From Thermodesulfobacteriota bacterium (GTDB lineage Bacteria; Desulfobacterota; Desulfobacteria; Desulfobacterales; SURF-7): a stretch of 64,000 nucleotides of DNA. The stretch's first letter is position 1; every line of letters begins with the position of its first letter. The notes beneath the pieces were generated by a model. That model was given only the letters and a program-made list of their open reading frames with translations. It was not told where the DNA came from and searched no databases. Both the position numbers and the translations under genes were made by a program. This document shows positions 11,925 to 59,724 of this stretch, in pieces. The stretch lies in the NCBI GenBank assembly GCA_049320885.1, contig JBMORA010000028.1, positions 1 through 64,000 of the forward strand, in the 5' to 3' direction.

Positions 11925-13106
11925 ATGAAAAATCTCAACGGGAATTGCTATACACTGACTTTGTTCGTGGCCGGAACTGGAAAATCATCAACCATAGCAA
12001 GACGGAATTTGGAATGTATTTTCCGTGAGGAACTAAAAATCGACTACGCTCTCCGGATTGTCGATGTGCTGGAAACCCCCCAGGCTGCTGTGGCAAACGG
12101 AGTTGTTCTAGCGCCGTCACTACTACTGGTGGAGGCAAATAGCCGGCCCGTGCTGATTGTCGGTGACCTGAGCGACACTGCTCGAATAAATACCGCATTG
12201 GGGCTTTCGTCGCCCATTCAAACAAACCCCGGTGCATCCCGACAGGACGAGGTTACCCTTGCATTGCAACATGGCCAAGTGGATGCGGTTGTCGGACTCA
12301 ACGGCATTTACCTGGTACAATCCAGTGAGTTGGAAGAAAAACGGCGGCACAGCGAAACTGAGCTTCGCAATATCGTAGATAATCAACACGAAATCATTCG
12401 GGACAACAATCGCCTGCTGCAGGCCCTGAGCACAAAATTGAGTGAGCTTTCCTATCAGACTCTGCAATGCATTGAAAACGAGAGAAAAATAATCGCCAGA
12501 GAACTGCACGACAGCATCGGCGCCAGCCTGACAGCCATCAAATTTGGTCTGGAAAGCCGGCTGCTCAAAATGGATCAGCCGCCGGAGCCGGATGTCATCT
12601 CCTTTGAACAACTCATCGACTACCTAAAGGACGCCAGCCGGGAAACCAAACGGATTTCAGACGGCTTGCGGCCCAGCTGGCTGGATGAGAGAAATCTGTT
12701 GGAGGCCGTGCAGCAGCATATTGAGCAATTTCGGGAATATCATGCCCATATCGAGGTGCAAACCCAAATCGACGTGGAGGCTACATCCCTTACACCCCGT
12801 TTCAAAATCGTCCTGTTCCGCGTGCTCCAGGAGGCCTTGAACAACATCGTCAAACACAGCCAGGCGGACCGCGTGGAAATCTTCCTGAGACGAAATGGCA
12901 ACTGTATAGAATTACAGGTCAAAGATAATGGTTGCGGCTTTGAAGCCGAAAAGGGGTCAGAAAAACAGGGCCGGCCGGCTGGTTTCGGCCTGATAAGCAT
13001 GCGCGGCCGGGTGGAGCTTTGTAGCGGCTGTTTCGAAATCTGTTCCAAACCCGGTCAAGGCACAACTATCAGCGTTGCGTTACCATTGGAACAGATCAAC
13101 GGATAA
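11925..13106 (+). CDS. KaiB-like domain fused to HisKA_3 histidine kinase
   Basis: N-terminal YTLTLFVAG...S..A..NL...YALRIVDVLETPQ.A....V..P.L (KaiB-like); ARELHDSIG H-box, QEALNNIVKH, DNGCGF, GFGL. Confidence 0.85.
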   Translation: MKNLNGNCYTLTLFVAGTGKSSTIARRNLECIFREELKIDYALRIVDVLETPQAAVANGVVLAPSLLLVEANSRPVLIVGDLSDTARINTALGLSSPIQTNPGASRQDEVTLALQHGQVDAVVGLNGIYLVQSSELEEKRRHSETELRNIVDNQHEIIRDNNRLLQALSTKLSELSYQTLQCIENERKIIARELHDSIGASLTAIKFGLESRLLKMDQPPEPDVISFEQLIDYLKDASRETKRISDGLRPSWLDERNLLEAVQQHIEQFREYHAHIEVQTQIDVEATSLTPRFKIVLFRVLQEALNNIVKHSQADRVEIFLRRNGNCIELQVKDNGCGFEAEKGSEKQGRPAGFGLISMRGRVELCSGCFEICSKPGQGTTISVALPLEQING

Positions 13107-13281: not shown

Positions 13282-14184
13282 ATGATCATCACCATTGGAG
13301 AAGTGGTGACGGATCATTTCCCGAAGTATCGACGCATCGGTGGGGCGCCGCTCAATTTTGCCTGTCATCTACAAAAATTCAGGGAGAATGTGGTCCTGAT
13401 CACCCGTTTGGGTAACGATGCCGACGGAGATGAAATCCGAAGCTTGATCCGCGACCACGGCTTGCCATCTGCCTTTATCCAGCGCGACCGGCACCACTCC
13501 ACCGGTCGGGTGCATGTGACCCTGGATGCCCAGGGGGGGCCGAATTTCGATATCGTCATCGGCACTGCTTATGACCATATCGAGCTGGATCCCTCTGTTT
13601 TCAGCCGCCTGGCGGGGGAACAGACGCTTATCTACTATGGATCGCTGATTCAGCGCAGCACCAATGGTTTTACACAGCTCCGACGCTTTTTGGAAAGCCG
13701 GCCGAAAAGCGCAAAATGCTTCTGCGACATCAATCTGCGCCCCCCCCATTTCCGCCACGAAGTCATCGAGCAATGTCTGCACTACGCCGACATTCTCAAG
13801 CTCAATGAAGAGGAACTTATGACCATAGCGGCAATGCTGACAGTTTCCGGAACAGCACCGGACATGGTCGCGGCGTTGATGGATCGGTACCGTCTCGAGA
13901 TGGTCGCCGTCACCCTGGGAGCGGGCGGCAGTTTCGTCGTACACGCAAACCAGCGCTATGACGCTCCCCGACCGAAGACAGAAGACCTGGTGGATACCGT
14001 GGGTGCAGGGGATGCTTTCGCCGCTGTACTCGCCTTGGGATACCTGCGACAGCTACCCCTGAACCTTGTCCTGAAGGTGGCGACGGGTTTCGCCGCCGAA
14101 GTTTGCCGACGCCCGGGAGCGATACCCGCGGATGATGCCCCTTATGAGCGAGTCGAACGCCAACTAAAGGACTCTCAGAGATGA
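13282..14184 (+). CDS. PfkB-family fructokinase
   Basis: GGAPLNFA, DINLRP, LKLNEEE, VDTVGAGDAF; first gene of the sps-sus operon. Confidence 0.85.
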   Translation: MIITIGEVVTDHFPKYRRIGGAPLNFACHLQKFRENVVLITRLGNDADGDEIRSLIRDHGLPSAFIQRDRHHSTGRVHVTLDAQGGPNFDIVIGTAYDHIELDPSVFSRLAGEQTLIYYGSLIQRSTNGFTQLRRFLESRPKSAKCFCDINLRPPHFRHEVIEQCLHYADILKLNEEELMTIAAMLTVSGTAPDMVAALMDRYRLEMVAVTLGAGGSFVVHANQRYDAPRPKTEDLVDTVGAGDAFAAVLALGYLRQLPLNLVLKVATGFAAEVCRRPGAIPADDAPYERVERQLKDSQR

Positions 14185-16427
14185 CCGACAGCTTACCCTA
14201 CATCCAGATGTTCAGCCTGCATGGACTGATCCGCAGCAGGAACATGGAGCTTGGCAGAGACGCTGATACCGGCGGACAGGTGAAATACGTCATTGAACTC
14301 TGCCAGCACCTGAGTCGACAGCCGGAGATCGGACGGGTCGATCTGTTTACCCGCCTGGTGGCCGACAAACGCGTCTCGGAAGACTATGCCCAACCCGTCG
14401 AGGTGGTGAACCCCAAATTCCGCATTATCCGGATTCAGTGCGGCGGCCGGAAATATATCCGCAAAGAGCTGCTGTGGCCCCACCTCGACGAATATGTGGA
14501 CAAATGCGTCAAATTCATGAAGCGCGAGAAGCAGGCCCCCGATGTGCTACACGGCCATTACGCCGATGCCGGATATGTGGCCTTGCAGCTGGCCGACTTT
14601 TTCGGCGCGCCGTTCATTTTCACCGGCCACAGCCTGGGCCGTTCCAAGCTGCAAAAACTGCTGGACGACGGAATGACCCGGGAGGACATCGTCAAAAAAT
14701 ACAAGATCGACCATCGCATCCAGGTGGAGGAGACCATTCTGGCCCATGGGGATCTCTTGATCACCAGCACCCGCCAGGAGATGGAGGTGCAATACGGCCA
14801 ATACGACTACCACGACCTGCCCACCTATGCCATCATTCCGCCGGGGATCGACATCGACAAGTTTTATCCGTTCTACCACCACCTTCTTTCGGAAAACGGG
14901 GTTTCGGAAAACGCCATGTTCGCCCAGGCCTCCATGCTGAAGGAACTCAACCGCTTTTTCCTAAAACCGGACAAGCCGCTTATCCTGGCCCTATGCCGAC
15001 CCGACAAACGCAAAAACATTTCGGGACTGATCCAGGCCTATGGGAAAGATCTGGAACTGCAGGCCATGGCCAACCTGGCGGTTTTCGCCGGTATCCGTAA
15101 GGATATCGACACCATGGAGGAAAACGAACGGGACGTGCTCACCGGCATGCTCCTGTTGATGGACAAATACGACCTGTACGGCAAAATGGCCATCCCGAAA
15201 AAACATGATGTCGAATATGAGGTCCCCGCCCTTTACCGCATCGCCGCGGAGAGCCGGGGGGTATTTGTCAATCCGGCCCTTACCGAACCCTTCGGCATCA
15301 CCCTGCTGGAGGCCTCGGCCACCGGTCTGCCCATTGTCGCCACCAATGATGGCGGTCCCAAGGACATTCTGCGGAATTGCAGCAACGGCATCCTGGTGGA
15401 TCCCAACAGTTCACGGGCCATTTCCACAGCCTTGAAAAAAATCGTCGCGGACCCGGAGCGCTGGGAAAAGTATTCCAAAAACGGCATCCTAAACGTCCGG
15501 AAGCACTACACATGGAAGAGTCACGCGGAGGCCTACACGGAAAAACTCCGGGACCTCGTCCGCAAGCATAAGCCGTACCACCTGGATGCCGTGGTGCCCA
15601 CCGATGCCATCGGACGCCGCTTAATGGAACTGGACTACTTCCTGATCACCGATATCGACAACACCTTGATCGGTAAAGACAACACCCGCTTGGCCGAACT
15701 CTTGGAGCTGCTGGAAGCCCACCGCCATTCTATCGGCTTCGGGGTCGCCACCGGCCGTACCGTCGAATCCGCCTGGGAGATCCTGTCCAGACACGGCGTG
15801 CCGGCTCCGGACATCATCATCGGTTCCGTTGGAGCGGAAATCTACTATGGTCCCCAGCGGCAATTCGGCCAAGGCTGGGGCACCCATATCAGCCACAAAT
15901 GGGAGCGGGAGAAAATCGTCGAACTGCTTTCGGACTTTTCCTTTTTGTCTTTTCAGGAAGCCGATGCCCAGCGGCCGTTCAAAATCAGCTACTATATCGA
16001 ACCCGGTAAAGACCGGCTGGCGCAGATCCACCATCGCCTAAACGTGCACAAATGTCGCTATAACCTGATCTATTCCCACGAACGCTATTTGGATATTCTT
16101 CCGTATCGCGCCTCCAAGGGCAAGGCCATCCGATACCTGAGTTACAAATGGGAGATCCCGCTGCAGAACTTTCTTGTCTGCGGCGATTCAGGCAACGATG
16201 AAGAAATGCTGCGGGGCGAACCGCTCGCCGTGATCGTCGGTGATTACAGTCCCGAGCTGGAAATGCTCAAAGGCGCCCCCAGTGTCTTTTTCGCCGAAGC
16301 GCCATGTGCCGGCGGCATCCTGCAGGGATTGAAACGCTATCATTTCCTTGAAAAGGCGAGTGAAACGTGTGAAGCACATGGTAACCAGCAGACGGGAATC
16401 CGCGAAAAAAAGGAGGAAGTGGCGTGA
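14181..16427 (+). CDS. sps: Sucrose-phosphate synthase with C-terminal sucrose-phosphatase HAD domain
   Basis: ELGRDADTGGQVKYV, HGHYADAG, FTGHSLG, EPFGITLLEA; HAD motifs DIDNT, ATGR, GDSGND intact. Confidence 0.92.
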   Translation: MTDSLPYIQMFSLHGLIRSRNMELGRDADTGGQVKYVIELCQHLSRQPEIGRVDLFTRLVADKRVSEDYAQPVEVVNPKFRIIRIQCGGRKYIRKELLWPHLDEYVDKCVKFMKREKQAPDVLHGHYADAGYVALQLADFFGAPFIFTGHSLGRSKLQKLLDDGMTREDIVKKYKIDHRIQVEETILAHGDLLITSTRQEMEVQYGQYDYHDLPTYAIIPPGIDIDKFYPFYHHLLSENGVSENAMFAQASMLKELNRFFLKPDKPLILALCRPDKRKNISGLIQAYGKDLELQAMANLAVFAGIRKDIDTMEENERDVLTGMLLLMDKYDLYGKMAIPKKHDVEYEVPALYRIAAESRGVFVNPALTEPFGITLLEASATGLPIVATNDGGPKDILRNCSNGILVDPNSSRAISTALKKIVADPERWEKYSKNGILNVRKHYTWKSHAEAYTEKLRDLVRKHKPYHLDAVVPTDAIGRRLMELDYFLITDIDNTLIGKDNTRLAELLELLEAHRHSIGFGVATGRTVESAWEILSRHGVPAPDIIIGSVGAEIYYGPQRQFGQGWGTHISHKWEREKIVELLSDFSFLSFQEADAQRPFKISYYIEPGKDRLAQIHHRLNVHKCRYNLIYSHERYLDILPYRASKGKAIRYLSYKWEIPLQNFLVCGDSGNDEEMLRGEPLAVIVGDYSPELEMLKGAPSVFFAEAPCAGGILQGLKRYHFLEKASETCEAHGNQQTGIREKKEEVA

Positions 16428-18817
16428 GTAAACAGCTGGAGGCACTACTTCTGGAGAACCAAAAAGATGTATTTCGTTTTTTAAGCAAGGTGGCCGCCCA
16501 TGAAAAAAAACTGTTCGTCAAAGGCGATCTGCTGGAAATCCTGGAGTGCTACAAGGCCGAAAGCGGCGAGGAACATCATGCCGCCATCAGCGACCTTGCG
16601 CGGAAGATCAACGAAGGAGTCGCCATCGGCAGCTGCATTTATTTCGAGTTTCGCGAAAAGATTGGTTTTTCAGAATGTTATATCTTTAACCTGGAAGAGC
16701 TCGCCTTCAACCAGATCAGTGCGGCGCAATACCTGAAGGCCAAGGAGACCTTCATCAAACCGGAACAGACGGAAGACCTGTTGACCCTGAATTTCAGAAC
16801 GTTTTACGACAAGTTCCCCAGCGTCCGGGAATCCAAGAATATCGGGCATGGCGTCGAATACCTCAACCGGTATCTGTCTAGCAACATGTTCACCAATCCG
16901 GCCAAACTGAGTGCCGCCCTTTTCGATTTCTTGTTTCTTCACAAAATCGGCACGCGCCAGCTGGTGCTCAACGACAGGGTCAACAGCCCCGAAAAACTCT
17001 CGGCGAGCATCGAGAAGGCCAAGAAGTTCTTGCAGAAACAGGCGGACAACGAGCCGTATGAAAACATCAAACAGGTCCTGCAGGAGTTTGGATTAGAACC
17101 CGGCCTGGGAAATACTGCTGCCAAGATCATGGAAAGCCTGGAATTGCTCGATACCATCATGTTGTCCCCCGACCCCCAATCCCTTAAAGCCTTTCTGTCC
17201 CGGATTCCCATGATTTTTAACATCGCCGTCATTTCCCCCCACGGCTATTTCGGCCAAGAAGGGGTGCTGGGTATGCCCGATACCGGCGGTCAGGTCGTGT
17301 ATATCCTGGATCAGGTCAAGGCCCTGGAGCAGGCCATGGCCGAATCGTTTTTGGAGTCTGGCGTCACCGCGCGGCCAAAAATCATCATCCTGACCCGTTT
17401 GATCCCCAATGCCGGGAATACCTGCTGTAATCAGCGGTTGGAGAAAGTGCATGAAACCCGGAACACCTGGATCCTGCGGGTGCCCTTTCGCCAGCACAAC
17501 AAGCGCGTCACCGACAACTGGATCTCCCGATTCGAAATATGGCCCTATCTGGAGGAATTCGCCCTGGATGCCTGCCGGGAACTGTTGACCGAATTCGGCC
17601 AAAGGCCGGATCTCCTCATCGGCAATTACTCGGACGGCAATCTGGTGGCCTCCATCCTTTCCCGGAAACTGGGCGTCACCCAATGCAATATCGCCCACGC
17701 CCTCGAAAAGAGCAAGTACCTGTTCAGCGCCTTGTACTGGGAAAGCATGGAGGAACAATATCATTTTTCCAGCCAGTTTACCGTGGATCTTCTGGCCATG
17801 AACAGCGCCAACTTCATCATCACCTCCTCGTATCAGGAAATCGCGGGAACCGAAGAAAGCATCGGGCAGTATGAGTCTTATCTCAATTTCACCCTGCCGG
17901 GTCTGTATCGCGTCACCGGCGGGATCAATCTGTTCCATCCCAAGTTCAACATCCTGCCGCCGGGCGTGAACACGAAAGTCTATTTCCCTTATACCCGCAA
18001 GAAAGAAAGAAGAGAGAAAACCTGCCGCGAACTGACCCGACTGTTGTTCGAGAATGCTGAGGATCCGGAAGTCTTCGGCCGCCTGACGGAGCCGGATAAA
18101 GTCCCGATTTTTTCCCTGGCGCGGTTGGATAAAATAAAAAACCTGTCCGCCTTGGTTCAATGGTTCGGAAAAAGCAAGGAACTTCAGGAACAGGCGAACC
18201 TGATCATCGTGGCTGGCAAGGTCGACCCGGAGCATTCGACGGACGGCGAGGAAAAGGAGCAGATCCATCTGCTCCATGCGCTCATCGGCACCTATGACCT
18301 GCAGGATAAAATCAGGTGGATCGGCAAGCTGTTCCGCAAGGAGCAGACCGGCGAAGTGTACCGCCTCATCGCCGACCGGAAAGGGGTGTTCGTCCAGCCG
18401 GCCCTGTTCGAAGGCTTCGGTCTGACCGTGCTGGAAGCCATGCGTTCTGGGCTCCCGGTCTTCGCCACCCAATATGGCGGCCCCTTGGAGATCATCCAGG
18501 ACGGTCGCTCCGGATTTCACATCGACCCCATCAACGAAGTCGAAACCATCGACAAATTATCAGGATTCCTTCAAAAATGCGCCATCGATGCCGGCCATTG
18601 GACGAGAATATCTAAAAATGCAATCGAACGGGTGGATACAACCTATAATTGGGGACTCTATTCCAGGAACCTGCTGTCCCTGGCGAAAATCTACGGTTTC
18701 TGGCGCTTTTCCACCAATATCGAAATGGAGGAAATGAATGCCTATCTCGATGTGCTATACCATTTGCTGTACCTGCCCATGGCCAGAAAAATCATGGATA
18801 TGCATATGCAGCGATAA
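16424..18817 (+). CDS. sus: Sucrose synthase
   Basis: SPHGYFGQ..VLG.PDTGGQVVYILDQV, WISRFEIWPYLE, IGNYSDGNLVA, AHALEK, VQPALFEGFGLT. Confidence 0.95.
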   Translation: MSKQLEALLLENQKDVFRFLSKVAAHEKKLFVKGDLLEILECYKAESGEEHHAAISDLARKINEGVAIGSCIYFEFREKIGFSECYIFNLEELAFNQISAAQYLKAKETFIKPEQTEDLLTLNFRTFYDKFPSVRESKNIGHGVEYLNRYLSSNMFTNPAKLSAALFDFLFLHKIGTRQLVLNDRVNSPEKLSASIEKAKKFLQKQADNEPYENIKQVLQEFGLEPGLGNTAAKIMESLELLDTIMLSPDPQSLKAFLSRIPMIFNIAVISPHGYFGQEGVLGMPDTGGQVVYILDQVKALEQAMAESFLESGVTARPKIIILTRLIPNAGNTCCNQRLEKVHETRNTWILRVPFRQHNKRVTDNWISRFEIWPYLEEFALDACRELLTEFGQRPDLLIGNYSDGNLVASILSRKLGVTQCNIAHALEKSKYLFSALYWESMEEQYHFSSQFTVDLLAMNSANFIITSSYQEIAGTEESIGQYESYLNFTLPGLYRVTGGINLFHPKFNILPPGVNTKVYFPYTRKKERREKTCRELTRLLFENAEDPEVFGRLTEPDKVPIFSLARLDKIKNLSALVQWFGKSKELQEQANLIIVAGKVDPEHSTDGEEKEQIHLLHALIGTYDLQDKIRWIGKLFRKEQTGEVYRLIADRKGVFVQPALFEGFGLTVLEAMRSGLPVFATQYGGPLEIIQDGRSGFHIDPINEVETIDKLSGFLQKCAIDAGHWTRISKNAIERVDTTYNWGLYSRNLLSLAKIYGFWRFSTNIEMEEMNAYLDVLYHLLYLPMARKIMDMHMQR

Positions 18818-22748: not shown

Positions 22749-22803
22749 GGCGTACCCATAAAGCAGCATCACGGGTGGGAGGTTTAAATTGAGAAAAGGC
22801 GAT

Positions 22804-22830
22804 GGAGGGCGGTTCTGGCTCCCGCCCTCC
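22804..22830. terminator. GC-rich hairpin between convergent mscS and FNT genes
   Basis: GGAGGGCGG / CCGCCCTCC 9-bp stem; no clear U-tract. Confidence 0.45.
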
Positions 22831-22839
22831 CCGCCCAGA

Positions 22840-24132
22840 TCAGGAGGATGTACGCCCCTCGGCCTTTTTCTGGGGGTTGGCAGGCTTCAGATACGCCCCC
22901 CAATAACTCATGCCCACGAACACCGCCCCGCCGATGATGTTGCCGATGGTCACCGGCAGGAGGTTTTTCCACAGACAGTTGACCCAGGTCAGGCCCTCGG
23001 CGTTGATGGCCTGAATGGCGGCCAGTTCCCCCCAGCTCTTGATGAAGATGCCGGTGGGAATGAAATACATGTTGGCCACGCAGTGTTCGAAGCCGATGGC
23101 GACGAACCCCATGATGGGAAAGAAAATGGCGAAAATTTTACCGACGGTCTGCCGGGCCGCCAGGGCCATCCATACCGCCAGGCAGACCAGCCAGTTGCAG
23201 CCGATGCCCCGGAAAAGGGCTTCGCTGAATCCCAGGGTTGATTTTTTCAGGGCGATGGTGACCGCGGCGGCCCCCAAGGCGCCGTCTCCGGTTTTCCACA
23301 GGCCGGAAAAATAAAACAGCAGGGCGATAACCAGCGACCCCACGAAATTGGCCAGATACACCACGGACCAGCGTTTGAGCATGTTGCCGATGGTGATTTC
23401 CCGGCTCAAGACACTGGAGACCATGAGATTGTTGCCGGTGAAGAGTTCGGCCCCGGCAATGACCACCAGCATCAGTCCGAGACTGAAAGCGGCGCCGGCC
23501 ATGACCTTGGACAAGCCGACGCCGGTGATGGGCGCCATGTCGAAGGTGACGCTGGTGGACAGCAGGCCGCCGAAGCCGATATAAGAGCCGGCCAGGACCC
23601 CCAATACCGTAACCGTCAGCCAGGGGGAAGTCACCTTGCCCACGCCGATGGTGGACGCCACCGTTTCCGCGATGGTCTTGGGTGCCTTGTCTTCCATGCC
23701 CGGAACCGGAAACTGCAGGGATTTGATGATGTTTTCAAAGCGGCCCAGAACCTGTTTTTCCGCCGTCAATTTGCGCTGGATCGCCCTTGTGACCGTGGCG
23801 TATATTTCTTCCGGAGTGAACGGCTTGGCCACATAATCCATGGCGCCCCGCTTCATGGCCTCGGTGGCCCGCCCCACGGAAGGAAAACCGCTGATCATCA
23901 CCATGGCGGATTCCGGCGATCTTCGATGGAGTTCCTCGATCACGTCGAGACCGTCGAAACCGGGCATTTTCCAGTCGCACAGAATCACATCGAAGGCGGA
24001 ATCCCCGGCGAGCCGGAGCCCTTCCTGGGGACTCGATGTGATCACCACGTTGAAACCTTCCGCGCTGAAGATCCTCCGACAGGAATTCAAGACGATTTCA
24101 TCGTCATCAATGATCAGCATGGTCTGGGTCAT
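22840..24132 (-). CDS. Receiver domain fused to formate/nitrite transporter (FNT) channel
   Basis: REC (IIDDD, LCDWKMP, SG, KPF) in frame with FNT motifs GAELFTGN, GIGCNWLVCLA, GFEHCVANM. Confidence 0.92.
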   Translation of the reverse strand: MTQTMLIIDDDEIVLNSCRRIFSAEGFNVVITSSPQEGLRLAGDSAFDVILCDWKMPGFDGLDVIEELHRRSPESAMVMISGFPSVGRATEAMKRGAMDYVAKPFTPEEIYATVTRAIQRKLTAEKQVLGRFENIIKSLQFPVPGMEDKAPKTIAETVASTIGVGKVTSPWLTVTVLGVLAGSYIGFGGLLSTSVTFDMAPITGVGLSKVMAGAAFSLGLMLVVIAGAELFTGNNLMVSSVLSREITIGNMLKRWSVVYLANFVGSLVIALLFYFSGLWKTGDGALGAAAVTIALKKSTLGFSEALFRGIGCNWLVCLAVWMALAARQTVGKIFAIFFPIMGFVAIGFEHCVANMYFIPTGIFIKSWGELAAIQAINAEGLTWVNCLWKNLLPVTIGNIIGGAVFVGMSYWGAYLKPANPQKKAEGRTSS

Positions 24133-24140
24133 GGGGCCTC

Positions 24141-24767
24141 CTACTGTTTCATGTGCTTCTTCCCTTCCGTCAGCCAGTGCTTCTGTTCCGGCTTGATCAT
24201 GCCCAGCTGATCCTCCAGCCAGTCGACATCCCCGGTGACGATCGCCAGCTTTTCATTGGCGGTCAATTTGTACGGGCCCAGGGCCTCGCCCCCCTCTTCA
24301 AAGACCTTCCGGGCAAAATCCGGCTCCGCAGCTCCTTTCATCAGCACCTTCCGGACTTCCTCGGCATGAATCAGGGTCTGCTCTTCCGGAACGCTGCCGG
24401 TGGCGGCTTCGATGGCCGATACCACAATCCGGATCAGTTCTTCCGGATCGAACGGTTTTTCAATGTAGTTGACGGCCCCCAGTTTCATGGCCTGGACCGC
24501 CGAAGCCACGCTGGCATAACCCGTTATGATCACCACGGGCATCTGCGGCTTCTGACGTTTGACATCCCGGACAACCGTCAACCCATCCACGTCCGGCATC
24601 CGGATATCAGTGAGAACGATATCGTAGGATTCCTCGGCAGCCATGCGAATCCCGGCCCTGGCGCTCAGGCTGACATCCACCTCGAATCCTTCCTCCGTCA
24701 GCACCCTGCGGATACTCTCCAGGACGATCGCCTCGTCATCAATGGCCAACACTTTTTTCCCCTTCAT
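24141..24767 (-). CDS. Response regulator with small helical C-terminal domain
   Basis: REC LTDIRMP/KPF; C-terminal DFARKVFEEGGEAL..YKLT..EKLAIVTGD. Confidence 0.88.
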   Translation of the reverse strand: MKGKKVLAIDDEAIVLESIRRVLTEEGFEVDVSLSARAGIRMAAEESYDIVLTDIRMPDVDGLTVVRDVKRQKPQMPVVIITGYASVASAVQAMKLGAVNYIEKPFDPEELIRIVVSAIEAATGSVPEEQTLIHAEEVRKVLMKGAAEPDFARKVFEEGGEALGPYKLTANEKLAIVTGDVDWLEDQLGMIKPEQKHWLTEGKKHMKQ

Positions 24768-24848
24768 GAAATCACCTCACATGGTTGTTGTTAGCTGCAT
24801 GCACGGCTTTGTTCCTTCACCGCCAATCGGTGTGTTCCCAGCGGCGGA

Positions 24849-25475
24849 TCACCATATCTCGGCACCCAGTCGGGCCTCCAGCCAGACTTTCTGATCGGGG
24901 CTGAGGGCGCCGACATGCGCTTCTATCCAGGCGATGTCGCCGGTGATGATGGCCAGTTTCTCCGGACCGGTGAGCTGGAAGCCGTCCAGCGCATCCGCGC
25001 CGTTGTTCAACAACTCGCGCCTGAAATCGAAATCCACGGCACCCAGTTCGAGGACCTTGAGAACTTCCTCCTTGTGGATGATGGCCTGCTCCTCCGGCTG
25101 CTCCTCGGCGGCCCGATGGATCGAACCGCTAACGGCCTTGACCAGCTCATCCGGACTGAACGGTTTTTCAATGTAATCCGCGGCGCCGAGTTTCATGGCC
25201 TGAACCGCGGAACGCACCGAGGCATAGCCGGTGATGATCATCACCGGCAAGGACGGTTTGGCGCGCTTGACGTCCCGCAGCACAATCAAACCGCCGATAT
25301 CCGGCATGCGGATATCGGTCAACACCAGATCGTAGGCCTGGCTGATCGCCTTTTCAATGCCTTCCTTTCCGCCGAGGCATTGATCCACCTCATAGTTTTC
25401 CGCCATCAGAATCTTCCGGACACTGTCCAGTACAACCTGCTCATCGTCAATGACCAGCACTCTTTGCTTACTCAT
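24849..25475 (-). CDS. Response regulator with small helical C-terminal domain (paralog of the preceding gene)
   Basis: REC LTDIRMP/KPF; C-terminal DFRRELLNNGADAL..FQLT..EKLAIITGD. Confidence 0.88.
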   Translation of the reverse strand: MSKQRVLVIDDEQVVLDSVRKILMAENYEVDQCLGGKEGIEKAISQAYDLVLTDIRMPDIGGLIVLRDVKRAKPSLPVMIITGYASVRSAVQAMKLGAADYIEKPFSPDELVKAVSGSIHRAAEEQPEEQAIIHKEEVLKVLELGAVDFDFRRELLNNGADALDGFQLTGPEKLAIITGDIAWIEAHVGALSPDQKVWLEARLGAEIW

Positions 25476-25837
25476 GGGGCCTCCTTTTGTATCGCCTGCC
25501 GGACGCTTTTCAGCAGTTCATCCGGGGTAAATGGTTTGGCTATGAAATTGCTCGCGCCCATGTTCAGGGCTTCCGCGATCATGTCTTCCGTATTCAATCC
25601 GCTCATCAGGATCACCGGGATATCGACCTGCCGCTCTCTCAGTTCGCGCAACAAATACAATCCGTCATGCACCGGCATTTTGATGTCCACCAAAAAAGCG
25701 GTGGGTTTTTCCGCCTCCAGGGCTTTCAAAGCCTCCAGGGCCGATGCGACCACCAAGACCTCGAAACCCTCCGGCTCCAACACCCGCCGGCAGCTTTCGA
25801 GCACAATCCGTTCGTCGTCAACCACCAGGATTTTCAT
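25472..25837 (-). CDS. Single-domain response regulator
   Basis: MKILVVDDE, VDIKMP, SG, KPF. Confidence 0.88.
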   Translation of the reverse strand: MKILVVDDERIVLESCRRVLEPEGFEVLVVASALEALKALEAEKPTAFLVDIKMPVHDGLYLLRELRERQVDIPVILMSGLNTEDMIAEALNMGASNFIAKPFTPDELLKSVRQAIQKEAP

Positions 25838-27803
25838 GTTCTTCCACCTGTCTTTCAATGGGTAGCCATATAAAAAAGCTGGAACCCTTGCCGACTTCGC
25901 TCTGCACCCGGATATTGCCGCCGTGCTCCTTGACGATCCCGTAGGAAACCGACAGTCCCAATCCGGTTCCCTTCCCGACTTCCTTGGTGGAAAAAAAGGG
26001 ATCGAACAGTTTGTTCATGTGTTCGGGAGGGATCCCGCAGCCGGTGTCCGTAATGGTGATTTCCACACCCCGGTGGCCGGTATCGCTGGCGGACAGAGCC
26101 GCCGCCGTGGTCACGGTGATTTTGTCGGAAGGCTTGGTGGCATCCAGGGCATTGATCAGGATGTTCAACAACACGCTCTGGATCTGACTGCGATCCAACA
26201 CCAGTGTCGGCAGCTCCTGGCCGGGATGGAACTGGATGCTCACCCCTTTGAGCAGGGCCTGGTTTTCCATCAGTTTGATGGACGCCTCCACCAGCCGGTT
26301 GACATCGCTCTCTTCGGGGTCGAGCCGGGTCTGCCGGGAAAAATCCAGCAACCCCTTGACGATCTTGCGGACCCTTTCGGTGGATTCGGCGATCACCTGG
26401 AGATCCGTGCGCATATCGTCCGGCAGATCCTTCCGCCGCAGAAGCATGTGGGTGTAGGTCAGCACCCCGGTAAGGGGGTTGTTGATTTCGTGTCCCACCC
26501 CCGCCGCCAGACGACCCACCGTGGCCTGCTTCTCGGAATGGATGATCTGGCTGCGGCTCTCGTTGCGGCGGCGCTTCATGGAACCGACCATCTCCAGAAA
26601 AGTCGTCTGCAATACGGCAATTTCCATGTCCTTGGAAATCGAACCGATATCCGGGGAAACGTTTCCCTCGGAGACTTCCCGGCTCGCCCGGATCAACCGG
26701 TGAATGGGGCCCAGAATCCGCCCGGCCAGGAAGAACCCCATGACCACGGCGATAAGGCCGCCCATCCCCATGGACAGGACGAAATACAAAATGAATTTGT
26801 GTTGAATCCCGGAGTAATTGGACTCCGGCACGGCGATGGCGAGCATCCCGACCCGTTTCCCGCCGATATCCTCCAGGGGGCTGTAGGTGGCGATGCACCG
26901 CTCCGTCACGCAGAAATGTCTGGCGGTCCATGGTTTCCCCAGGCCGAGCACCTGATCCCGCACCTCATCCGTCACCATTGTTCCCACGGCGCGTCCGCCG
27001 GTTTCATCCATCATGTTGGTCGCTACCCGGATTGTATCGAACAATATGCTTGCGGTGGGCGGCTTGGCTCCGGCCTGGATCCCGGCCCCCAGGAAGGATT
27101 TTTGCACCAGGTCCACGATATCGGTGCGCTGATGGAGAACCACACCGCCATAAAGCACCCCCAGCAGTTCCCCGCCGTCGTGATTGGCGTAAACGGGGAT
27201 GCCGGCGGCCACGGCCAGGCAGGCTTTGGTCCCTTCGGCAGCCGTATTTTTCCCGTCATCAGCGGCAGACGTGTAGAACTGGATCCGTCCGGCCAGTTCC
27301 GGATTTTCGGTGGTCAGGAAATCCCGCGTCAGCACCACCGTGCCGGCAACGGGCAACCGGCTTGCCCTGACCGCCTGAACAACCGGGTTTTCGGCCTGCC
27401 GCTGCCCCTCCGGAATCAGCTTGGGCGTCGGTCGACTGATGGATCGGCCGTCGGGCAGCACGATCCCGGCAAAATCCAGATCGGCATGGATCGAAAGACG
27501 CTGCAGACGTTCATATAATTCCTCCGGATTGGCTTCCGTGAAGGCGTTGCGAAAGCCTGGTCCCAGACTGGTGATCTCCAGGGCCAGTTTAATGAAACGG
27601 GTGCGGGAACGATAGGCGTCGTCCGCCGCGTTCAAAGCCAGACCGACCTGGCTGGCGGCCTCCTGGACAACCCGGTTGTACAGCAGATAACCGGCGATTA
27701 ACAACGACAGGCCGCCCACCAGAAAAGAAACGAGCAGGAAACCAATGACCAGTTGAAAGCGCGTGGAATGCAACATGCCGTTTTTCCCATATTTATCAAT
27801 CAT
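25818..27803 (-). CDS. Membrane sensor histidine kinase (periplasmic Cache-like, HAMP, HisKA, HATPase)
   Basis: Two TM helices; RVATN..GRAVGT Cache motif; HEINNPL, DTGCGI, FDPFFSTK, GTGLGL. Confidence 0.92.
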   Translation of the reverse strand: MIDKYGKNGMLHSTRFQLVIGFLLVSFLVGGLSLLIAGYLLYNRVVQEAASQVGLALNAADDAYRSRTRFIKLALEITSLGPGFRNAFTEANPEELYERLQRLSIHADLDFAGIVLPDGRSISRPTPKLIPEGQRQAENPVVQAVRASRLPVAGTVVLTRDFLTTENPELAGRIQFYTSAADDGKNTAAEGTKACLAVAAGIPVYANHDGGELLGVLYGGVVLHQRTDIVDLVQKSFLGAGIQAGAKPPTASILFDTIRVATNMMDETGGRAVGTMVTDEVRDQVLGLGKPWTARHFCVTERCIATYSPLEDIGGKRVGMLAIAVPESNYSGIQHKFILYFVLSMGMGGLIAVVMGFFLAGRILGPIHRLIRASREVSEGNVSPDIGSISKDMEIAVLQTTFLEMVGSMKRRRNESRSQIIHSEKQATVGRLAAGVGHEINNPLTGVLTYTHMLLRRKDLPDDMRTDLQVIAESTERVRKIVKGLLDFSRQTRLDPEESDVNRLVEASIKLMENQALLKGVSIQFHPGQELPTLVLDRSQIQSVLLNILINALDATKPSDKITVTTAAALSASDTGHRGVEITITDTGCGIPPEHMNKLFDPFFSTKEVGKGTGLGLSVSYGIVKEHGGNIRVQSEVGKGSSFFIWLPIERQVEEHENPGG

Positions 27804-27850
27804 ACAGTCCGGAAAAGGGACTATCCGCCCCCATGGCTATCCCTTGCTTG

Positions 27851-27866
27851 TGCAATTCGCTTGCCA
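27851..27866 (-). promoter_or_regulatory. Sigma54 (-24/-12) promoter candidate for the kinase-REC-FNT operon
   Basis: Minus strand TGGCAAGCGAATTGCA: GG-N10-GC; AT-rich tract upstream. Confidence 0.7.
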
Positions 27867-28046
27867 TCGGCCCGAATAATATTATATATATGTTTTTATT
27901 GGTTATTTATACAAATGAAGGCCATCGGGCAGGTCCGGGGAAAATCCACCGCCGCCCCGGGGTCTGATAAGGTTTTTTTCAAGGTGTAAAAAAAACCGAC
28001 GCCCCCCGGTTTTCCGGAAAATCCCGGGCTGTTCCGGAGGGTGTTG

Positions 28047-30575
28047 TTACAGCATCCCCCGGATGGTCGCAGCCGCCCTTTCCGCCGAGGGCAGCATGGC
28101 GTTTTCCAGATTCTTGGCGTAGGGAATGGGACAGTCCGGCGCGCTGATCTTGACCGGCGCGGTTTTCAAGAGGCTGAATCCCGCCAGGGCCACCCGGGAG
28201 ATGACCTCGGAGCCGATGCTGTTGCTGAAATGGGCTTCCTCCAAGACGGCCAAGCGCCCGGTACGGGCCACGGACCCAAGAATGCTTTCGGTATCCAGGG
28301 GATAGAGGGTCACCAGATCGATGATTTCGGCCTCCACTCCTTCCCGTTCCAGGATCCCGGCCACGCTTTTGGCAATGCCCACTCCCAGGAGGTAGGTGAC
28401 GATGGTGACATCCCGCCCCGGCCGGACGGTCCGGGCCTTGCCGATGGGCAGGGTGTATTCCCCGGCGGGCGCTTTTCCGGATTCGGCGTACAGGAGCTTA
28501 TGCTCGAAGAACAGCACCGGGTTGTCCGAACGGATGGCCGATGCCAGCAACCCTTTGGCGGTGAAGGCGTCACTCGGCGCAACCACCATCAAACCGGGAA
28601 TGCCGCAAAAGAATTTTTCCATGGACTGGGAATGCTGGGCCGCCATGCCGATGCCGCTGCCCAGGGGGGTCCGAATCACCAGGGGAACCGACACCTGCCC
28701 GCCGGTCATGTAGCGCAATTTGGCCGCCTGATTGACGATGGGATCCATGCAGCAGGTCAAAAAATCGGCGAAGAGGATTTCCGCCACCGGCCGCATTCCG
28801 GTCATGGCCGCGCCCACGGCGCCGCCCACGAAAGCGTTCTCCGATATGGGGGTATCGATGATCCGGCCGGTTCCGAAACGATCCACCAGGCCTTCGGTGA
28901 CATTGAAATACCCTCCTAGGGTCACGTCCTCGCCCCACAGGAAAACGCGCTCATCCCGATCCATTTCCTGGGCCAGGGCCATATTGATGGCCTGGGATAC
29001 CGAAAATTCCGCCGCGTCGTCCGGCACCTGGAAACTCCCGGAAAAGAGGGCGCGGTCCTCGGGACTGTAAATGTCCCGGCTCAGTTCCCCGGGTTGGGGT
29101 TCGGGGGCCTGTTCGGCGAACCGGACCGCCGCCGCGATGGTTTCCCTGACGGTTCCGCGGAGCCCCTCCAGTTCCTCCGGTGACATCCCGCCGCCCACCA
29201 GCTCCTGCTCCAGGCGCCGGACGGGATCTGCTTTGGCATGCAGGGCCTTCTCTTCCGGACCGCGGTATTGCTGCTGATCCCCTTCCATATGGCCGTGCCA
29301 GCGGTAGGTCATCAGCTCCACCAGCCGCGGCCGACCGTCGGCCCGCATCCCGTCGATGATCCGGCCCACTTCCGCGAATACGGTGCGGGCATCGTTGCCG
29401 TCGAACCGGTGGGACGCGACGCCATAGGCCTCGGCCCTGCGAAACACCTCGGTGACCGCCGAGTGCCGCTCGATGGCGGTGAATTCCCCGTAGCGGTTGT
29501 TTTCCACCACCACCAGCACCGGCAGGTTGAATACGGCGATCATGTTCATGGCTTCGTGGAACATGCCTTGATTGACGGACCCGTCGCCGGCGATGACCAC
29601 TGAAATATCGTCGCTCTTGCGATAATGCTTGATGGAAAAACCGGCCCCCAGGGCCAGAAGGTAACCGGCGCCGACGATCCCGTTGGCCCCCAGCACGCCG
29701 ATCCGGCCGTCGGTGACATGCATGGAGCCGCCCTTGCCCTTGCAAAGGCCCTCGGCCTTGCCGTAAATTTCCGCCATCATCCGCTGGACGTCGGCGCCCT
29801 TGGCGATGATATGCCCGTGCCCGCGATGGGTGGTATTCAGGTAGTCGCTGTCCCGCAACTGCATACAGACTCCGGCGGCCACGGCTTCCTGTCCGATGGA
29901 CAGATGGATGGCCTCGGTGGGCAGACGGCCGGCCTGAAAGGCCTCCGCCAGATGCTGCTCGAAATAGCGGATGGTCAGCATGGCGGTCAGGAGGTCCACG
30001 GGGCCGACGTCTTTTCGCCCCCCCGCCCTTCCCGGACCGGACGCCGGTGTACCATGGCCGGCAAATTCCAGGGGGAATTCCGGAATCCGCTCCGGCTGGA
30101 CAGTTCCGCGTCGTTTGCCGAAAAACCATCCCAAACGTCGTCTGGCCTTGCGTTGCGGCGCCGCCGGCAACAGATCCGCCCTTCCCAGCTCCCGCAGAAT
30201 CCGGGGATAGAGGACAAAAGCCGGTTTCAAGGCCGGAACCAGTTTCAGGGCCTTTTGCACCGAGCCCTTGGCCACGATTTTCCGCGTGGCCAGCGCCAGG
30301 GGCACATTCAGTTGCTCCATCCAGAACAGATGGGCGGTTTCGGAGGAGAGAATCATTTCCACGTCGAAATCCCGGTTGTCCGGGTCGGCCCAGAAGTAAC
30401 GCGGCGTTTCGCCGCTGATATCGATCATCAGGGCCGTGGGGAAATCCGTATACCGGAACTTGGCGATGAGGCGGGAGCCGGAAACCGACCGAACGATTTC
30501 CGGGGTGGCGAAAATGGCCTCCCACAGAGCCGACAGCACCCGGACCAATTCTTCCTGGTTGTGAAACGCACCCAT
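28047..30575 (-). CDS. SCP2-like domain fused to ThDP-dependent E1 alpha and beta (acetoin/2-oxoacid dehydrogenase family)
   Basis: N-terminal FW...LNVPLALA.RKI..KG (SCP2-like); HLSIGQEA, THRGHGH, GDG...NN, TYRWHGH; DTPISE, AAQHSQS. Confidence 0.88.
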   Translation of the reverse strand: MGAFHNQEELVRVLSALWEAIFATPEIVRSVSGSRLIAKFRYTDFPTALMIDISGETPRYFWADPDNRDFDVEMILSSETAHLFWMEQLNVPLALATRKIVAKGSVQKALKLVPALKPAFVLYPRILRELGRADLLPAAPQRKARRRLGWFFGKRRGTVQPERIPEFPLEFAGHGTPASGPGRAGGRKDVGPVDLLTAMLTIRYFEQHLAEAFQAGRLPTEAIHLSIGQEAVAAGVCMQLRDSDYLNTTHRGHGHIIAKGADVQRMMAEIYGKAEGLCKGKGGSMHVTDGRIGVLGANGIVGAGYLLALGAGFSIKHYRKSDDISVVIAGDGSVNQGMFHEAMNMIAVFNLPVLVVVENNRYGEFTAIERHSAVTEVFRRAEAYGVASHRFDGNDARTVFAEVGRIIDGMRADGRPRLVELMTYRWHGHMEGDQQQYRGPEEKALHAKADPVRRLEQELVGGGMSPEELEGLRGTVRETIAAAVRFAEQAPEPQPGELSRDIYSPEDRALFSGSFQVPDDAAEFSVSQAINMALAQEMDRDERVFLWGEDVTLGGYFNVTEGLVDRFGTGRIIDTPISENAFVGGAVGAAMTGMRPVAEILFADFLTCCMDPIVNQAAKLRYMTGGQVSVPLVIRTPLGSGIGMAAQHSQSMEKFFCGIPGLMVVAPSDAFTAKGLLASAIRSDNPVLFFEHKLLYAESGKAPAGEYTLPIGKARTVRPGRDVTIVTYLLGVGIAKSVAGILEREGVEAEIIDLVTLYPLDTESILGSVARTGRLAVLEEAHFSNSIGSEVISRVALAGFSLLKTAPVKISAPDCPIPYAKNLENAMLPSAERAAATIRGML

Positions 30576-57342: not shown

Positions 57343-59724
57343 ATGGAAACAGCCCGGGCATTGTCGACGATTCCCGCCGAAACACGGGTGGGCCGGCTCC
57401 GGCGCCGCATTATCGAGGCTCCCCAGGAAATCTGCGTGGAGCGGGCCCGGTATCTCACCCAGGCCATGGCGTGGCACTGGGACAAGGATCCCCTAACCCG
57501 CATGAGCCTGGCCCTCGAACATATCCTTTCCCGGATACGCGTCATTATCCGGCCGGATGAACTGATCGTGGGCTGCCGGACCAGCAAGCTCAAGGGCGCC
57601 CCCTTGTTTCCGGAGAACAAGATCCGCTGGATCGAAGGCGACGTGGAGAATTTCGACCGGCGGGTGGTCCAGCGCGCCTTGATCACCGAGGAGGAGAAAG
57701 CCGAAGTTCTGCGGGACATCGTGCCCTTCTGGAAAGGCCGGTCCGTCGAGGAGCATTTCGAATCGCTGCTGCCGGCGGACGTGGCCGAGGACATGGACAA
57801 ATATATCTTCACCATGATGCTGGAGATCACTTACGGCATCGGACATTTCACCATGGACCATCCCCGGGTGCTCCGGGAAGGGCTGTCCGGAGTCATCCAC
57901 CAATCCCGGGAGGCTTTCGCGGCGCTGTCCCCTTCCGAGCAATCATCGGAAAAAGGCCGCTTCCACCTGGCGGTGATGCGCAGCCTGAAGGCCGCCATTC
58001 ATTTCGCGGGACGCCATGCGGATCATGCTGAAACATTGGCCGCCGCCGAACCGGACCCTGTGCGCAGGCAGGAACTCCAAATGATCGCCGCGGTCTGCCG
58101 GCAGGTTCCCGAACATCCGGCCCGGACCTTTCACGAGGCGGTCCAGGGGCTCTATTTCATCCATCTCATCGCCCAGATCGAGTCCGGCGGCAACTCGGTT
58201 TCGTTGGGCCGCATCGACCAGATTCTCCAGCCCTACTATAAAAAGGATTTGGAAGCAGGCCGCATCACGCCGGATCAGGCCCGGGAACTCATGGCCTTGC
58301 TGTTCCTCAAAACCAACGAAATCTGGAATGTTCTGGAGGAAGCCTACATTCCGGGAGGGGAAGGAACGGAAGGCAAAACCACCCAGAACGTCACCGTGGG
58401 CGGCGTGGATGCCGCAGGCAGGGACGCCACCAACGAACTCAGCTTCATCGGCCTGGACGCCTATTCCCAAATCCGTACGGTCCAACCCAATTTCGGCGTG
58501 CGCATCAGCGCCGGGACGCCGGAGTTGTTTTTCATGAAAGCCGCGGCCTGCGCCAAAGACGGCGTATTGCTGCATTTTTTCAACGACGACGCCATCGTGC
58601 CCTCCCTGATCCTGGCGGGACATTCGGAAGCGGACGCCCGGGATTACGGCGTCGTGGGCTGCCTGGAGCCCAACGCCCAAGGTAAATCCTTCGGTTCCAC
58701 GTTCGCGGCCCAATTCAATCTCATCAAATGCGTGGAGTTGGCCCTGAGCAACGGCATCGACAACATTTTCGGGTATCGCACCGGACTCGAAACCGGCGCG
58801 CCGGAAACATTCCGCTCCTTTGAGGACGTCTTTCGGGCTTACGACCGTCAGGTTTCCCATTTCATCGGCCAGCTCACCAGGGGCATGGAATGTCTGGACC
58901 GCGCCATAGCGGAACGGCTGCCCTCGCCCTTCGCTTCCGCCATGATCCAGGGAACCCTTGAAACAAGCCGCGACCTCACCCGGGGAGGAGCGCGCTACAA
59001 TTCCACCGGTATCCAGTTCATGGGTTTTTCCAACACCGCGGACAGTTTGTATGCCGTGAAAACAGCCGTCTATGATGAAAAATCCGTCCGCCTGGAGGAA
59101 TTGGCCGCCTGGCTGGGCGACGACTGGACGGACGCGGAAGACAAAAGAACGTATTTTCAGAACAAAATCCCCAAGTACGGCAACGACTGCGATCCCGTGG
59201 ACCGCATGGCCGCAATGGTGGCCAACCATTTTTGCGATCTGCTGCAACGCCACCGGAATTTCCGCGGCGGTCATTACTGGCCGGGGATTTTCTCCGTGGG
59301 GTTCCACGTATCCATGGGGGCTTTCACGGGCGCGACGCCGGACGGGCGGTATGCCGGAGAAGTCCTGGGCAACGGGGTCACCCCGAGCAACAGCGCGGCG
59401 CTCAAAGGCCCCACCGCCATCATGAACTCCGTCACCCGACTTCCCCTCCGGCGGGTGTATAACGGCATGAACCTGAACATGCGCTTCCAGGGAAAACAGG
59501 TCAAGGCGGCCAACCTCATGAACCTGATCCGCGCTTATTTTGAAAAAGGCGGATTTCAGGTGCAGTTCAACATGGTGGACAGCGCCACCTTGCGCAAGGC
59601 CCAGCAGCATCCGGAACAGTATCGCGATCTCATCGTGCGCATCAGCGGCTATTCCGGCATTTTCATCAATCTGAGTGATATCGCCCAGGACGAGATCATC
59701 AGCAGAACCGAACAGACCCTGTAG
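57343..59724 (+). CDS. Glycyl radical enzyme (PFL2/eliminase-like, substrate unknown)
   Basis: DELIVG, GRIDQ, VGCLEP Cys loop, PKYGND, ATPDGR, QFN, RISGYS Gly loop; RBS AAGGAGG. Confidence 0.93.
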   Translation: METARALSTIPAETRVGRLRRRIIEAPQEICVERARYLTQAMAWHWDKDPLTRMSLALEHILSRIRVIIRPDELIVGCRTSKLKGAPLFPENKIRWIEGDVENFDRRVVQRALITEEEKAEVLRDIVPFWKGRSVEEHFESLLPADVAEDMDKYIFTMMLEITYGIGHFTMDHPRVLREGLSGVIHQSREAFAALSPSEQSSEKGRFHLAVMRSLKAAIHFAGRHADHAETLAAAEPDPVRRQELQMIAAVCRQVPEHPARTFHEAVQGLYFIHLIAQIESGGNSVSLGRIDQILQPYYKKDLEAGRITPDQARELMALLFLKTNEIWNVLEEAYIPGGEGTEGKTTQNVTVGGVDAAGRDATNELSFIGLDAYSQIRTVQPNFGVRISAGTPELFFMKAAACAKDGVLLHFFNDDAIVPSLILAGHSEADARDYGVVGCLEPNAQGKSFGSTFAAQFNLIKCVELALSNGIDNIFGYRTGLETGAPETFRSFEDVFRAYDRQVSHFIGQLTRGMECLDRAIAERLPSPFASAMIQGTLETSRDLTRGGARYNSTGIQFMGFSNTADSLYAVKTAVYDEKSVRLEELAAWLGDDWTDAEDKRTYFQNKIPKYGNDCDPVDRMAAMVANHFCDLLQRHRNFRGGHYWPGIFSVGFHVSMGAFTGATPDGRYAGEVLGNGVTPSNSAALKGPTAIMNSVTRLPLRRVYNGMNLNMRFQGKQVKAANLMNLIRAYFEKGGFQVQFNMVDSATLRKAQQHPEQYRDLIVRISGYSGIFINLSDIAQDEIISRTEQTL

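Follow-up and report, generated by a model that had tools for sequence, protein, structure and literature searches.

What opens and closes the channels of the FNT family, and what sets the direction of formate flow through them, is an open question that has been studied almost only in Escherichia coli, where the gate-keeper of the formate channel FocA is a large enzyme, PflB, that is difficult to control. According to a 2025 review, PflB binds FocA at its N-terminal helix, an interaction that is essential for translocation in vivo, and removal of this helix disrupts translocation. A 2025 cryo-EM paper describes order-disorder transitions of the same helix that are coupled to the C-terminus, together with cross-links to PflB. 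The gene described here lies on the minus strand of a 64,000-nucleotide stretch of a Thermodesulfobacteriota genome (assembly GCA_049320885.1, contig JBMORA010000028.1, positions 1 to 64,000; hereafter the window) and encodes a response-regulator receiver domain (REC) fused in frame to a complete FNT channel, the protein being called REC-FNT below. Both sources agree with an earlier note on this DNA that implicated N-terminal segments in FocA gating, and it is at this helix that the receiver is attached.

In CheY, CheB, PleD, RssB and PorX, the phospho-Asp switch of a receiver acts post-translationally on a fused or bound effector, but none of them has a channel or transporter as its fused output, as REC-FNT does. 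PleD and RssB are found among the matches, the RssB models all scoring under their cut-offs (NCBIfam). The closest solved relatives of the receiver half are the receiver-linker segments of NtrC1 from Aquifex and of DctD, in which the alpha5-linker passes on the phosphorylation signal; they have in common with REC-FNT a predicted extended helix alpha5, whereas their output is an AAA+ ATPase with a helix-turn-helix domain and not a membrane channel. A solute-transporter domain is fused to a two-component protein in the SLC5/STAC kinases CbrA and CrbS (PMC9100948), although there the transporter is carried by the kinase, as an input, while in REC-FNT the channel is carried by the response regulator, as an output. 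No description of a REC-FNT fusion was found in the literature searched, supplements aside, so that the earlier note's remark that no characterised example was known still stands; a phylogeny of the FNT family (PMC5525234) makes no mention of fusion, fused or response regulator, and a census of archaeal two-component systems (PMC5847659) makes none of formate, FocA or transporter.

The REC-FNT protein and its family

The gene and the parts of its product are as follows.

22840..24132, minus strand: REC-FNT gene including the stop codon, one open frame, protein P0001, 430 aa (Pfam, NCBIfam)
23791..24117, minus strand: receiver domain, residues 6-114, with D9, D10, D53, S81, Y100 and K103 (Pfam)
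23683..23790, minus strand: linker, residues 115-150, helix alpha5 extended to residue 139 and then a conserved loop, QFPVP..EDKAPK (AlphaFold2 model, 120-sequence alignment)
23629..23682, minus strand: FocA-type cytoplasmic N-terminal helix, residues 151-168, PKTIAETVA... (alignment, AlphaFold2, Foldseek)
22900..23655, minus strand: FNT channel core, residues 160-411, followed by a Y-L-K motif at 414-416 (Pfam PF01226)

Both halves score far above their Pfam cut-offs, with 91.2 bits for Response_reg (PF00072, residues 6-114, cut-off 30.2) and 270.4 bits for Form_Nir_trans (PF01226, residues 160-411, cut-off 34.6). The family was defined as the best 120 matches listed from a large protein collection (71-100% identity, 417-472 aa), and every one of them has both domains. 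In the receiver, D9, D10, D53, S81, K103 and P104 are kept in 120/120 members and Y100 in 119, and in the channel T232, K297, E349, H350 and N354 are kept in all 120; a further 21 sequences of greater diversity, with identity down to 43%, likewise show no change in the core residue set. The union of a receiver with a complete channel in one frame is therefore real and, because no family member departs from the phospho-site and the pore residues, both halves are under selection.

Relatives are widely distributed. Among contigs taken from one genome per species, 18 loci have a full-length relative (48-75% identity), the matches in the other 62 loci that were kept being confined to the channel half. 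The 18 loci span three phyla, Thermodesulfobacteriota, Acidobacteriota and Myxococcota, under the labels Desulfobacteraceae, Desulfarculus, Desulfatiglans, Syntrophus, Acidobacteriota (3 loci) and Myxococcota. When 400 other genomes from the phylum were sampled evenly, the full-length fusion turned up in 17, across 9 family codes, and just two of these 17 have a second, plain FNT among the matches listed. A one-off stop-loss, the event that the earlier note named as fatal to its proposal, is excluded by these counts (120 of 120 matches, 18 loci, 17 of 400 genomes). In one genome (G386), which has the full fusion as well, a match at 53% identity is limited to REC and linker (G386:C6:13165-13638, residues 1-158), and the 339-aa frame that contains it has no FNT match.

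Clustering at 50% places the N-terminal fusion in a small family, with P0062, P0125, P0126 and P0128 as full-length representatives. A tree built from 114 channel domains puts 40 of the 41 fused rows into one group with a Shimodaira-Hasegawa-like approximate likelihood ratio test (SH-aLRT) support of 92, and a core of 38 has a support of 100; P0128 is the only fused row just outside the group, on unresolved branches. The N-terminal fusion may thus have a single origin.

The junction between the two halves is conserved as well. In the AlphaFold2 model, alpha5 of the receiver is one helix from residue 107 to 139, a low-confidence segment follows at 136-145, and a further helix, 151-168, precedes the first transmembrane helix. 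Across the 120 sequences, conservation in the stretch GRFE...QFPVP..EDKAPKTIAETVA amounts to 60-90% or more. For the receiver plus its helix, the Aquifex NtrC1 receiver-linker is the best solved relative (78.6 bits), aligned to residue 137-147, and DctD is also matched; from residue 151 onward, P0001 aligns with the N-terminal helix region of Vibrio FocA, beginning at FocA residue 11.

The channel half belongs to the FNT family, as predicted from sequence and model: it passes PF01226 and the general FNT model TIGR00790 (247.6 bits, cut-off 232.3; NCBIfam), and it adopts the FNT fold, in which the central His (H350) and the Thr of the omega loop (T232) align with H209 and T91 of FocA. Its best solved relatives by sequence are Vibrio FocA and E. 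coli FocA (168 and 165 bits), followed by the algal bicarbonate transporter LCIA (148), the hydrosulfide channel HSC (107), NirC (105) and PfFNT (78). The model of P0001 (predicted local distance difference test, pLDDT, 91.3) superposes in Foldseek on full-length E. coli FocA as solved by cryo-EM (9g49) with a template-modelling (TM) score of 0.94 and a root-mean-square deviation of 1.4 A over 274 columns, and the TM scores to FocA structures range from 0.94 to 0.95. Eleven mapped pore residues of FocA (F75, L79, L89, T91, K156, N172, V175, F202, E208, H209 and N213) are all identical in P0001, as counted by hand along the sequence alignment, five of the positions having been counted across the 120 members. 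A Y-L-R/K motif follows the sixth transmembrane helix, as Y414-L415-K416 in P0001 and with R in the last position in 93 of the 120 members. The motif Y-L-R marks FocA-like members according to PMC5572259.

Formate is the most likely substrate, given the best scores to FocA, the fold match, the identical pore residues and the Y-L-R/K motif, although equivalog-level FocA membership fails on score. The earlier note had left the choice between formate, nitrite and hydrosulfide, and this choice can now be narrowed to a preference for formate, the assignments as a hydrosulfide or nitrite channel being less likely by both scores (HSC and NirC lie about 60 bits under FocA) and pore residues. P0001 also scores under the FocB and NirC equivalog cut-offs (NCBIfam). 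Compared with FocA/PflB of E. coli, REC-FNT has the same fold, the same pore residues including the Thr and His pair, the same motif after the sixth transmembrane helix and the same cytoplasmic N-terminal helix as a handle. It differs in that the handle is covalently joined to a receiver, the gene follows a sensor kinase instead of preceding pflB, the FocA equivalog scores are under the cut-offs, and the genome is without a true PflB.

Other FNT fusions exist. Among 19 long FNT representatives (Pfam), one has a C-terminal receiver (P0139), two have CBS pairs, one has a PilZ domain and one a DUF4389 domain, the CBS, PilZ and DUF4389 fusions being the proteins P0144, P0163, P0176 and P0195. The C-terminal FNT-REC family (P0139, P0274-P0392) is a large one, has both domains in 118 of its best 120 matches and bears the names of Armatimonadota and Chloroflexota; the D-D-D, phospho-Asp, Ser and Lys-Pro positions are invariant in nine aligned sequences. 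Five metagenome loci of this family (among L102-L108 and L163) have enough flank, and in two of them, L105 and L107, a kinase lies directly downstream; L163 has a split form, in which the receiver and kinases are encoded by genes of their own behind that of a plain FNT. These proteins are like REC-FNT in joining an FNT channel to a cytoplasmic signal-receiving domain and unlike it in that the domain is at the opposite end of the channel, on a different branch of the FNT tree and in other phyla. Because the other end of the channel is used and the tree branch is separate, receivers have been joined to FNT channels at least twice independently, once at each cytoplasmic end. The CBS and PilZ fusions, which also fall elsewhere in the tree than REC-FNT, suggest nucleotide or c-di-GMP control of FNT channels; no characterisation of FNT-REC, FNT-CBS or FNT-PilZ was found in the literature searched.

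The operon in the window and in relatives

REC-FNT is the last of five co-directional, closely spaced open reading frames (ORFs) on the minus strand, in the order kinase, lone REC, REC-X1, REC-X2 and REC-FNT (22840-27866). The gene order and architecture given in the earlier note are correct by the ORF calls, translations and Pfam. The other features of the region are listed here.

25818..27803, minus strand: sensor histidine kinase P0005, 661 aa (Pfam sCache_3_3, Cache_3-Cache_2, HAMP, HisKA, HATPase_c)
25472..25858, minus strand: stand-alone receiver P0004, Pfam Response_reg only, ORF opening with TTG at 25858
24849..25475, minus strand: REC-X1, protein P0003, 208 aa, a receiver and an 85-aa helical X domain at about 24852-25100 (Pfam, alignment)
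24141..24767, minus strand: REC-X2, protein P0002, 208 aa, paralogue of REC-X1, X domain at about 24144-24392 (Pfam, alignment)
27851..27866, minus strand: sigma-54-type -24/-12 element TGGCAAGCGAATTGCA, 10 of 11 consensus positions, its start 63 nt upstream of the ATG of the kinase
22791..22830, minus strand: terminator-like inverted repeat GGAGGGCGG ... CCGCCCTCC with a T-rich run, just past the REC-FNT stop codon (by eye)
28002..28021, minus strand: terminator-like hairpin 3' of the upstream E1-dehydrogenase gene (read, and hairpin scan)

The lone REC ORF, as opened with TTG, overlaps the kinase ORF by 41 nt; its true start is likely the ATG at 25837, which gives 121 aa, and the alignment of its homologues begins at residue 8. 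The REC ORF and REC-X1 overlap by 4 nt, and a gap of 8 nt separates REC-X2 from REC-FNT. The hairpin at 28002..28021 is the upstream border of the operon; the inverted repeat past REC-FNT is absent from the output of the hairpin scan, which has a loop limit of 8. Directly upstream, beyond the hairpin, an 842-aa fused E1 dehydrogenase is encoded (28047-30575), with the alpha and beta parts in one chain.

The kinase P0005 consists of a transmembrane helix, an extracytoplasmic Cache-type sensor of about 300 aa, a second transmembrane helix, and HAMP, HisKA and HATPase_c domains. Its kinase core is AtoS/ZraS-like with scores under the cut-offs (NCBIfam). There is no clue to a ligand, since the sensor domain has no match among solved structures at E <= 1. 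By their translations, all four receivers of the operon have kept the D-D pair, the phospho-Asp and K-P-F, and Pfam and NCBIfam find no DNA-binding family in any of them; the earlier note had read the phospho-Asp, KPF and lack of a DNA-binding domain likewise.

REC-X1 and REC-X2 are 53% identical, and each has Response_reg followed by about 85 C-terminal residues without a Pfam family, nothing in Pfam being better than E 0.05 for this X domain. The AlphaFold2 model of REC-X1 (pLDDT 91.8) folds X as five helices; a search of a protein atlas with REC-X names only the REC part, and the whole genome holds two copies of X, both in this operon. The X domain of P0003 has a weak match to NF038399 (Os1348, NHLP clan; E 5e-4, 20 bits, cut-off 40; NCBIfam) and that of P0002 has none, so that neither copy reaches the cut-off for the NHLP clan. 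The reading of X as an Hpt domain was ruled out, because the His that follows REC in REC-X is not invariant and is N or E in 3 of 12 sequences. Pfam and NCBIfam find no Hpt or Spo0B-like domain in the five proteins of the operon. The term phosphorelay used in the earlier note has thus to be given up in its strict sense, for want of an Hpt domain and of an invariant His, and the operon would instead be a branched two-component system, in which one kinase serves several receivers. The extra receivers, the lone REC and REC-X, are best seen as sinks or tuners.

The five proteins of the window were compared with every ORF in the 18 loci. In all 18, REC-FNT is adjoined by a Cache-kinase homologue, with the same Cache/HAMP build in the three that were checked (L004, L013 and L018). 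The lone REC is present in 16; in 15 of these it directly follows the kinase, and in L008 it precedes it. The commonest form, in 9 of the 18 loci, consists of kinase, REC and REC-FNT alone, while REC-X is found in only seven, four of which have two copies as in the window. By this comparison the core is kinase, lone REC and REC-FNT, and REC-X is accessory; the operon conservation proposed as a check in the earlier note thus holds for the core but not for REC-X. Two loci (L001 and L007) have a soluble REC-HisKA-HATPase protein and a divergent receiver. In L018, a Myxococcota locus, an NtrC-type activator is the partner of the Cache kinase, opposite which lie REC-X and REC-FNT, and NtrC-type activators also adjoin the modules of L011 and L015. 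Among the 93 flanking ORFs of the 18 loci, there are no conserved metabolic neighbours outside the module. Directly after REC-FNT in L018 lies the gene of a histidine kinase whose sensor is iron-hydrogenase-like (L018:8968-11004, Fe_hyd_lg_C and Fe-S motifs), followed by a REC-kinase (L018:10997-12151), with FeFe hydrogenase and radical-SAM genes nearby.

The sigma-54-type promoter of the earlier note needs a more careful wording. Against the consensus, which we take to be TGGCAC-N5-TTGCW, TGGCAAGCGAATTGCA agrees at 10 of the 11 specified positions, with its GG and GC elements ten bases apart, but the motif alone is at chance: with at most one mismatch, the window has two matches where 2.26 are expected. 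The weight of the element comes from its position and its recurrence, not from the motif score. The window and 5 of the 15 relatives examined (L001, L002, L011, L012 and L014) have an element with at least 9 of 11 positions in the 350 nt upstream of the kinase, where about 0.02 such sites per region are expected (a hand estimate with equal base frequencies), and these counts are not independent, as the motif is identical in L012 and L014 and the loci are related. A further one, TGGCATgtgaaATGCT, lies about 70 nt upstream of REC-X in L018, and none is found in the three Acidobacteriota loci. The genome has one rpoN gene, and its strong matches to the domain of sigma-54 activators (PF00158) number 42, none of them on the contig of the operon. 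The element, as far as it can be read, implies transcriptional control too. The claim that the output is post-translational is favoured by the receivers being without DNA-binding domains, and it need not be purely so, in view of the sigma-54 element and of the activators of the NtrC type that some relatives have next to them.

The genome is 5.6 Mb in size and 98% complete, and a search with the PF01226 profile finds REC-FNT as its sole FNT. It encodes six PFL-like glycyl-radical enzymes, one in the window (57382-59319) and the others on five further contigs, but no true PflB, the best TIGR01255 score being 159.8 against a cut-off of 994.2. A dsrA gene, a formate-tetrahydrofolate ligase and a selenocysteine formate dehydrogenase are present, and the last would be periplasmic, since its N-terminus has a twin-arginine motif. 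With a formyl-tetrahydrofolate ligase present and a formate dehydrogenase predicted in the periplasm, a channel that joins the cytoplasmic and periplasmic pools of formate would make physiological sense.

Elsewhere in the window, a row of genes at 13282-18817 encodes a PfkB kinase, a sucrose-phosphate synthase fused to a sucrose-phosphate phosphatase, and a sucrose synthase, a cluster for sucrose synthesis and turnover in a sulfate-reducing host. A histidine kinase with an N-terminal KaiB domain (KaiB, HisKA_3 and HATPase_c) is encoded at 11925-13106.

How the receiver may act on the channel

The reading towards which the comparison leans, with modest confidence and by analogy with FocA, is that REC-FNT is a formate channel gated by phosphorylation, with the receiver, in place of PflB, operating the N-terminal helix. 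With its Cache domain the membrane kinase would detect a small molecule outside the cytoplasm, for which formate or a related carboxylate is a guess, and it would phosphorylate Asp53 of the receiver fused to the FocA-like channel. Helix alpha5 of the receiver is predicted to continue through the long helix and the conserved hinge into the cytoplasmic N-terminal helix, the one engaged by PflB in E. coli FocA, and because of this continuity phosphorylation would reposition that helix: a change at the alpha4-beta5-alpha5 face would move it, so that the five pores open or close or their direction is biased. The receiver would thereby stand in for PflB as gate-keeper. The lone REC and REC-X would vie with the fused receiver for phosphoryl groups and act as sinks or tuners, the sigma-54 promoter would add a slower control over the amount of the module, and the channel would link cytoplasmic formate to the periplasmic selenocysteine formate dehydrogenase. 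In all this we infer phosphotransfer from the neighbouring kinase, an effect on transport and its direction, the ligand and the substrate.

Several points weigh against this reading. The AlphaFold2 monomer has no confident geometry between receiver and channel (predicted TM score 0.66, pLDDT under 50 in the hinge 136-145), and receivers usually act as dimers, an awkward fit with a five-fold channel. The FocA equivalog models score under their cut-offs (TIGR04060, 224.4 against 290.1; NF008069, 185.5 against 440), and formate- or hydrogen-related neighbours are found in only 5 of the 18 loci, namely a NuoF-like gene, a NiFe hydrogenase, a glycyl-radical enzyme, fdhD and an FeFe hydrogenase. In one locus (L008, 3783-5192, a metagenome-assembled genome labelled Syntrophus), the fusion gene is split into ORFs of 78 and 371 aa, which may be a sequencing or assembly error or a frameshift. 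Finally, three further receivers and a sigma-54 promoter mean that the kinase may have other outputs.

The same gated design could serve a substrate other than formate, be it hydrosulfide from sulfate reduction, nitrite, or a monocarboxylate such as acetate or lactate, a question that is independent of the other alternatives. The selectivity of FNT channels is loose, the presence of dsrA suggests that hydrosulfide is abundant in the host, the FocA equivalog scores are low, and LCIA, a bicarbonate transporter, is the next-best solved relative after FocA; this is nevertheless unlikely, given the distance of HSC and NirC from FocA in score, the identity of all eleven mapped pore residues, the carriers among Acidobacteriota, Myxococcota and Syntrophus records, beyond the lineages named as sulfate reducers, and the neighbours of three loci (hydrogenase genes around L018, a glycyl-radical enzyme near L013, fdhD adjoining L016).

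A somewhat more doubtful alternative is that the channel half reports transport or substrate occupancy to the signalling system, as a transceptor or co-sensor, the fused receiver being a phosphate sink whose accessibility is set by the state of the channel, and the real output being carried by the lone REC, by REC-X or by an unlinked activator of the NtrC type. Transporters are known as co-sensors of kinases, as DctA and DcuB are with DcuS, and the several extra receivers of the operon, the sigma-54 element upstream, the pairing of the Cache kinase with an NtrC-type activator in L018 and the activators that adjoin L011 and L015 would all fit. On the other side, the three-gene core that is the commonest form has neither a DNA-binding nor an enzymatic output, none of the 42 strong activator matches is on the contig of the operon, and a mere sink would have no need for an invariant linker and N-terminal helix.

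Improbable by a further step is a receiver that sets the amount, assembly, stability or placement of the channel (pentamer formation, proteolysis, clustering) and not the state of its pore, for although receivers elsewhere drive oligomerisation (NtrC1) or adaptor-mediated degradation (RssB) and sub-threshold RssB models are among the NCBIfam matches here, conservation at the junction with the gating helix reaches down to the individual residues, and FNT channels have independently gained CBS and PilZ domains, which on other channels and transporters are ligand-operated regulators.

What a phospho-switched FNT channel would mean

With gating by the receiver as the preferred reading, its wider consequence, for which the chances seem evenly poised, is that the output of a two-component system would be the opening, closing or direction of a channel, the receiver doing the job of PflB, so that a periplasmic signal would switch the flux of formate in seconds and without gene expression. 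If this is true, ion channel joins the outputs of response regulators, and the built-in phospho-switch would be a simple handle (Asp-to-Ala, Asp-to-Glu or BeF3-) by which a FocA-type pore could be trapped open or closed. Together with the FNT-REC, FNT-CBS and FNT-PilZ proteins, it would make FNT channels general targets of phospho-, nucleotide and c-di-GMP signalling. The carriers of REC-FNT are sulfate reducers, syntroph-like bacteria and Acidobacteriota, and in most of them it is the only FNT among the matches listed. Since electron transfer between species in anoxic sediments has formate as one of its main currencies, a release or uptake of formate under the control of a signal would, if the reading is true, bear on syntrophy.

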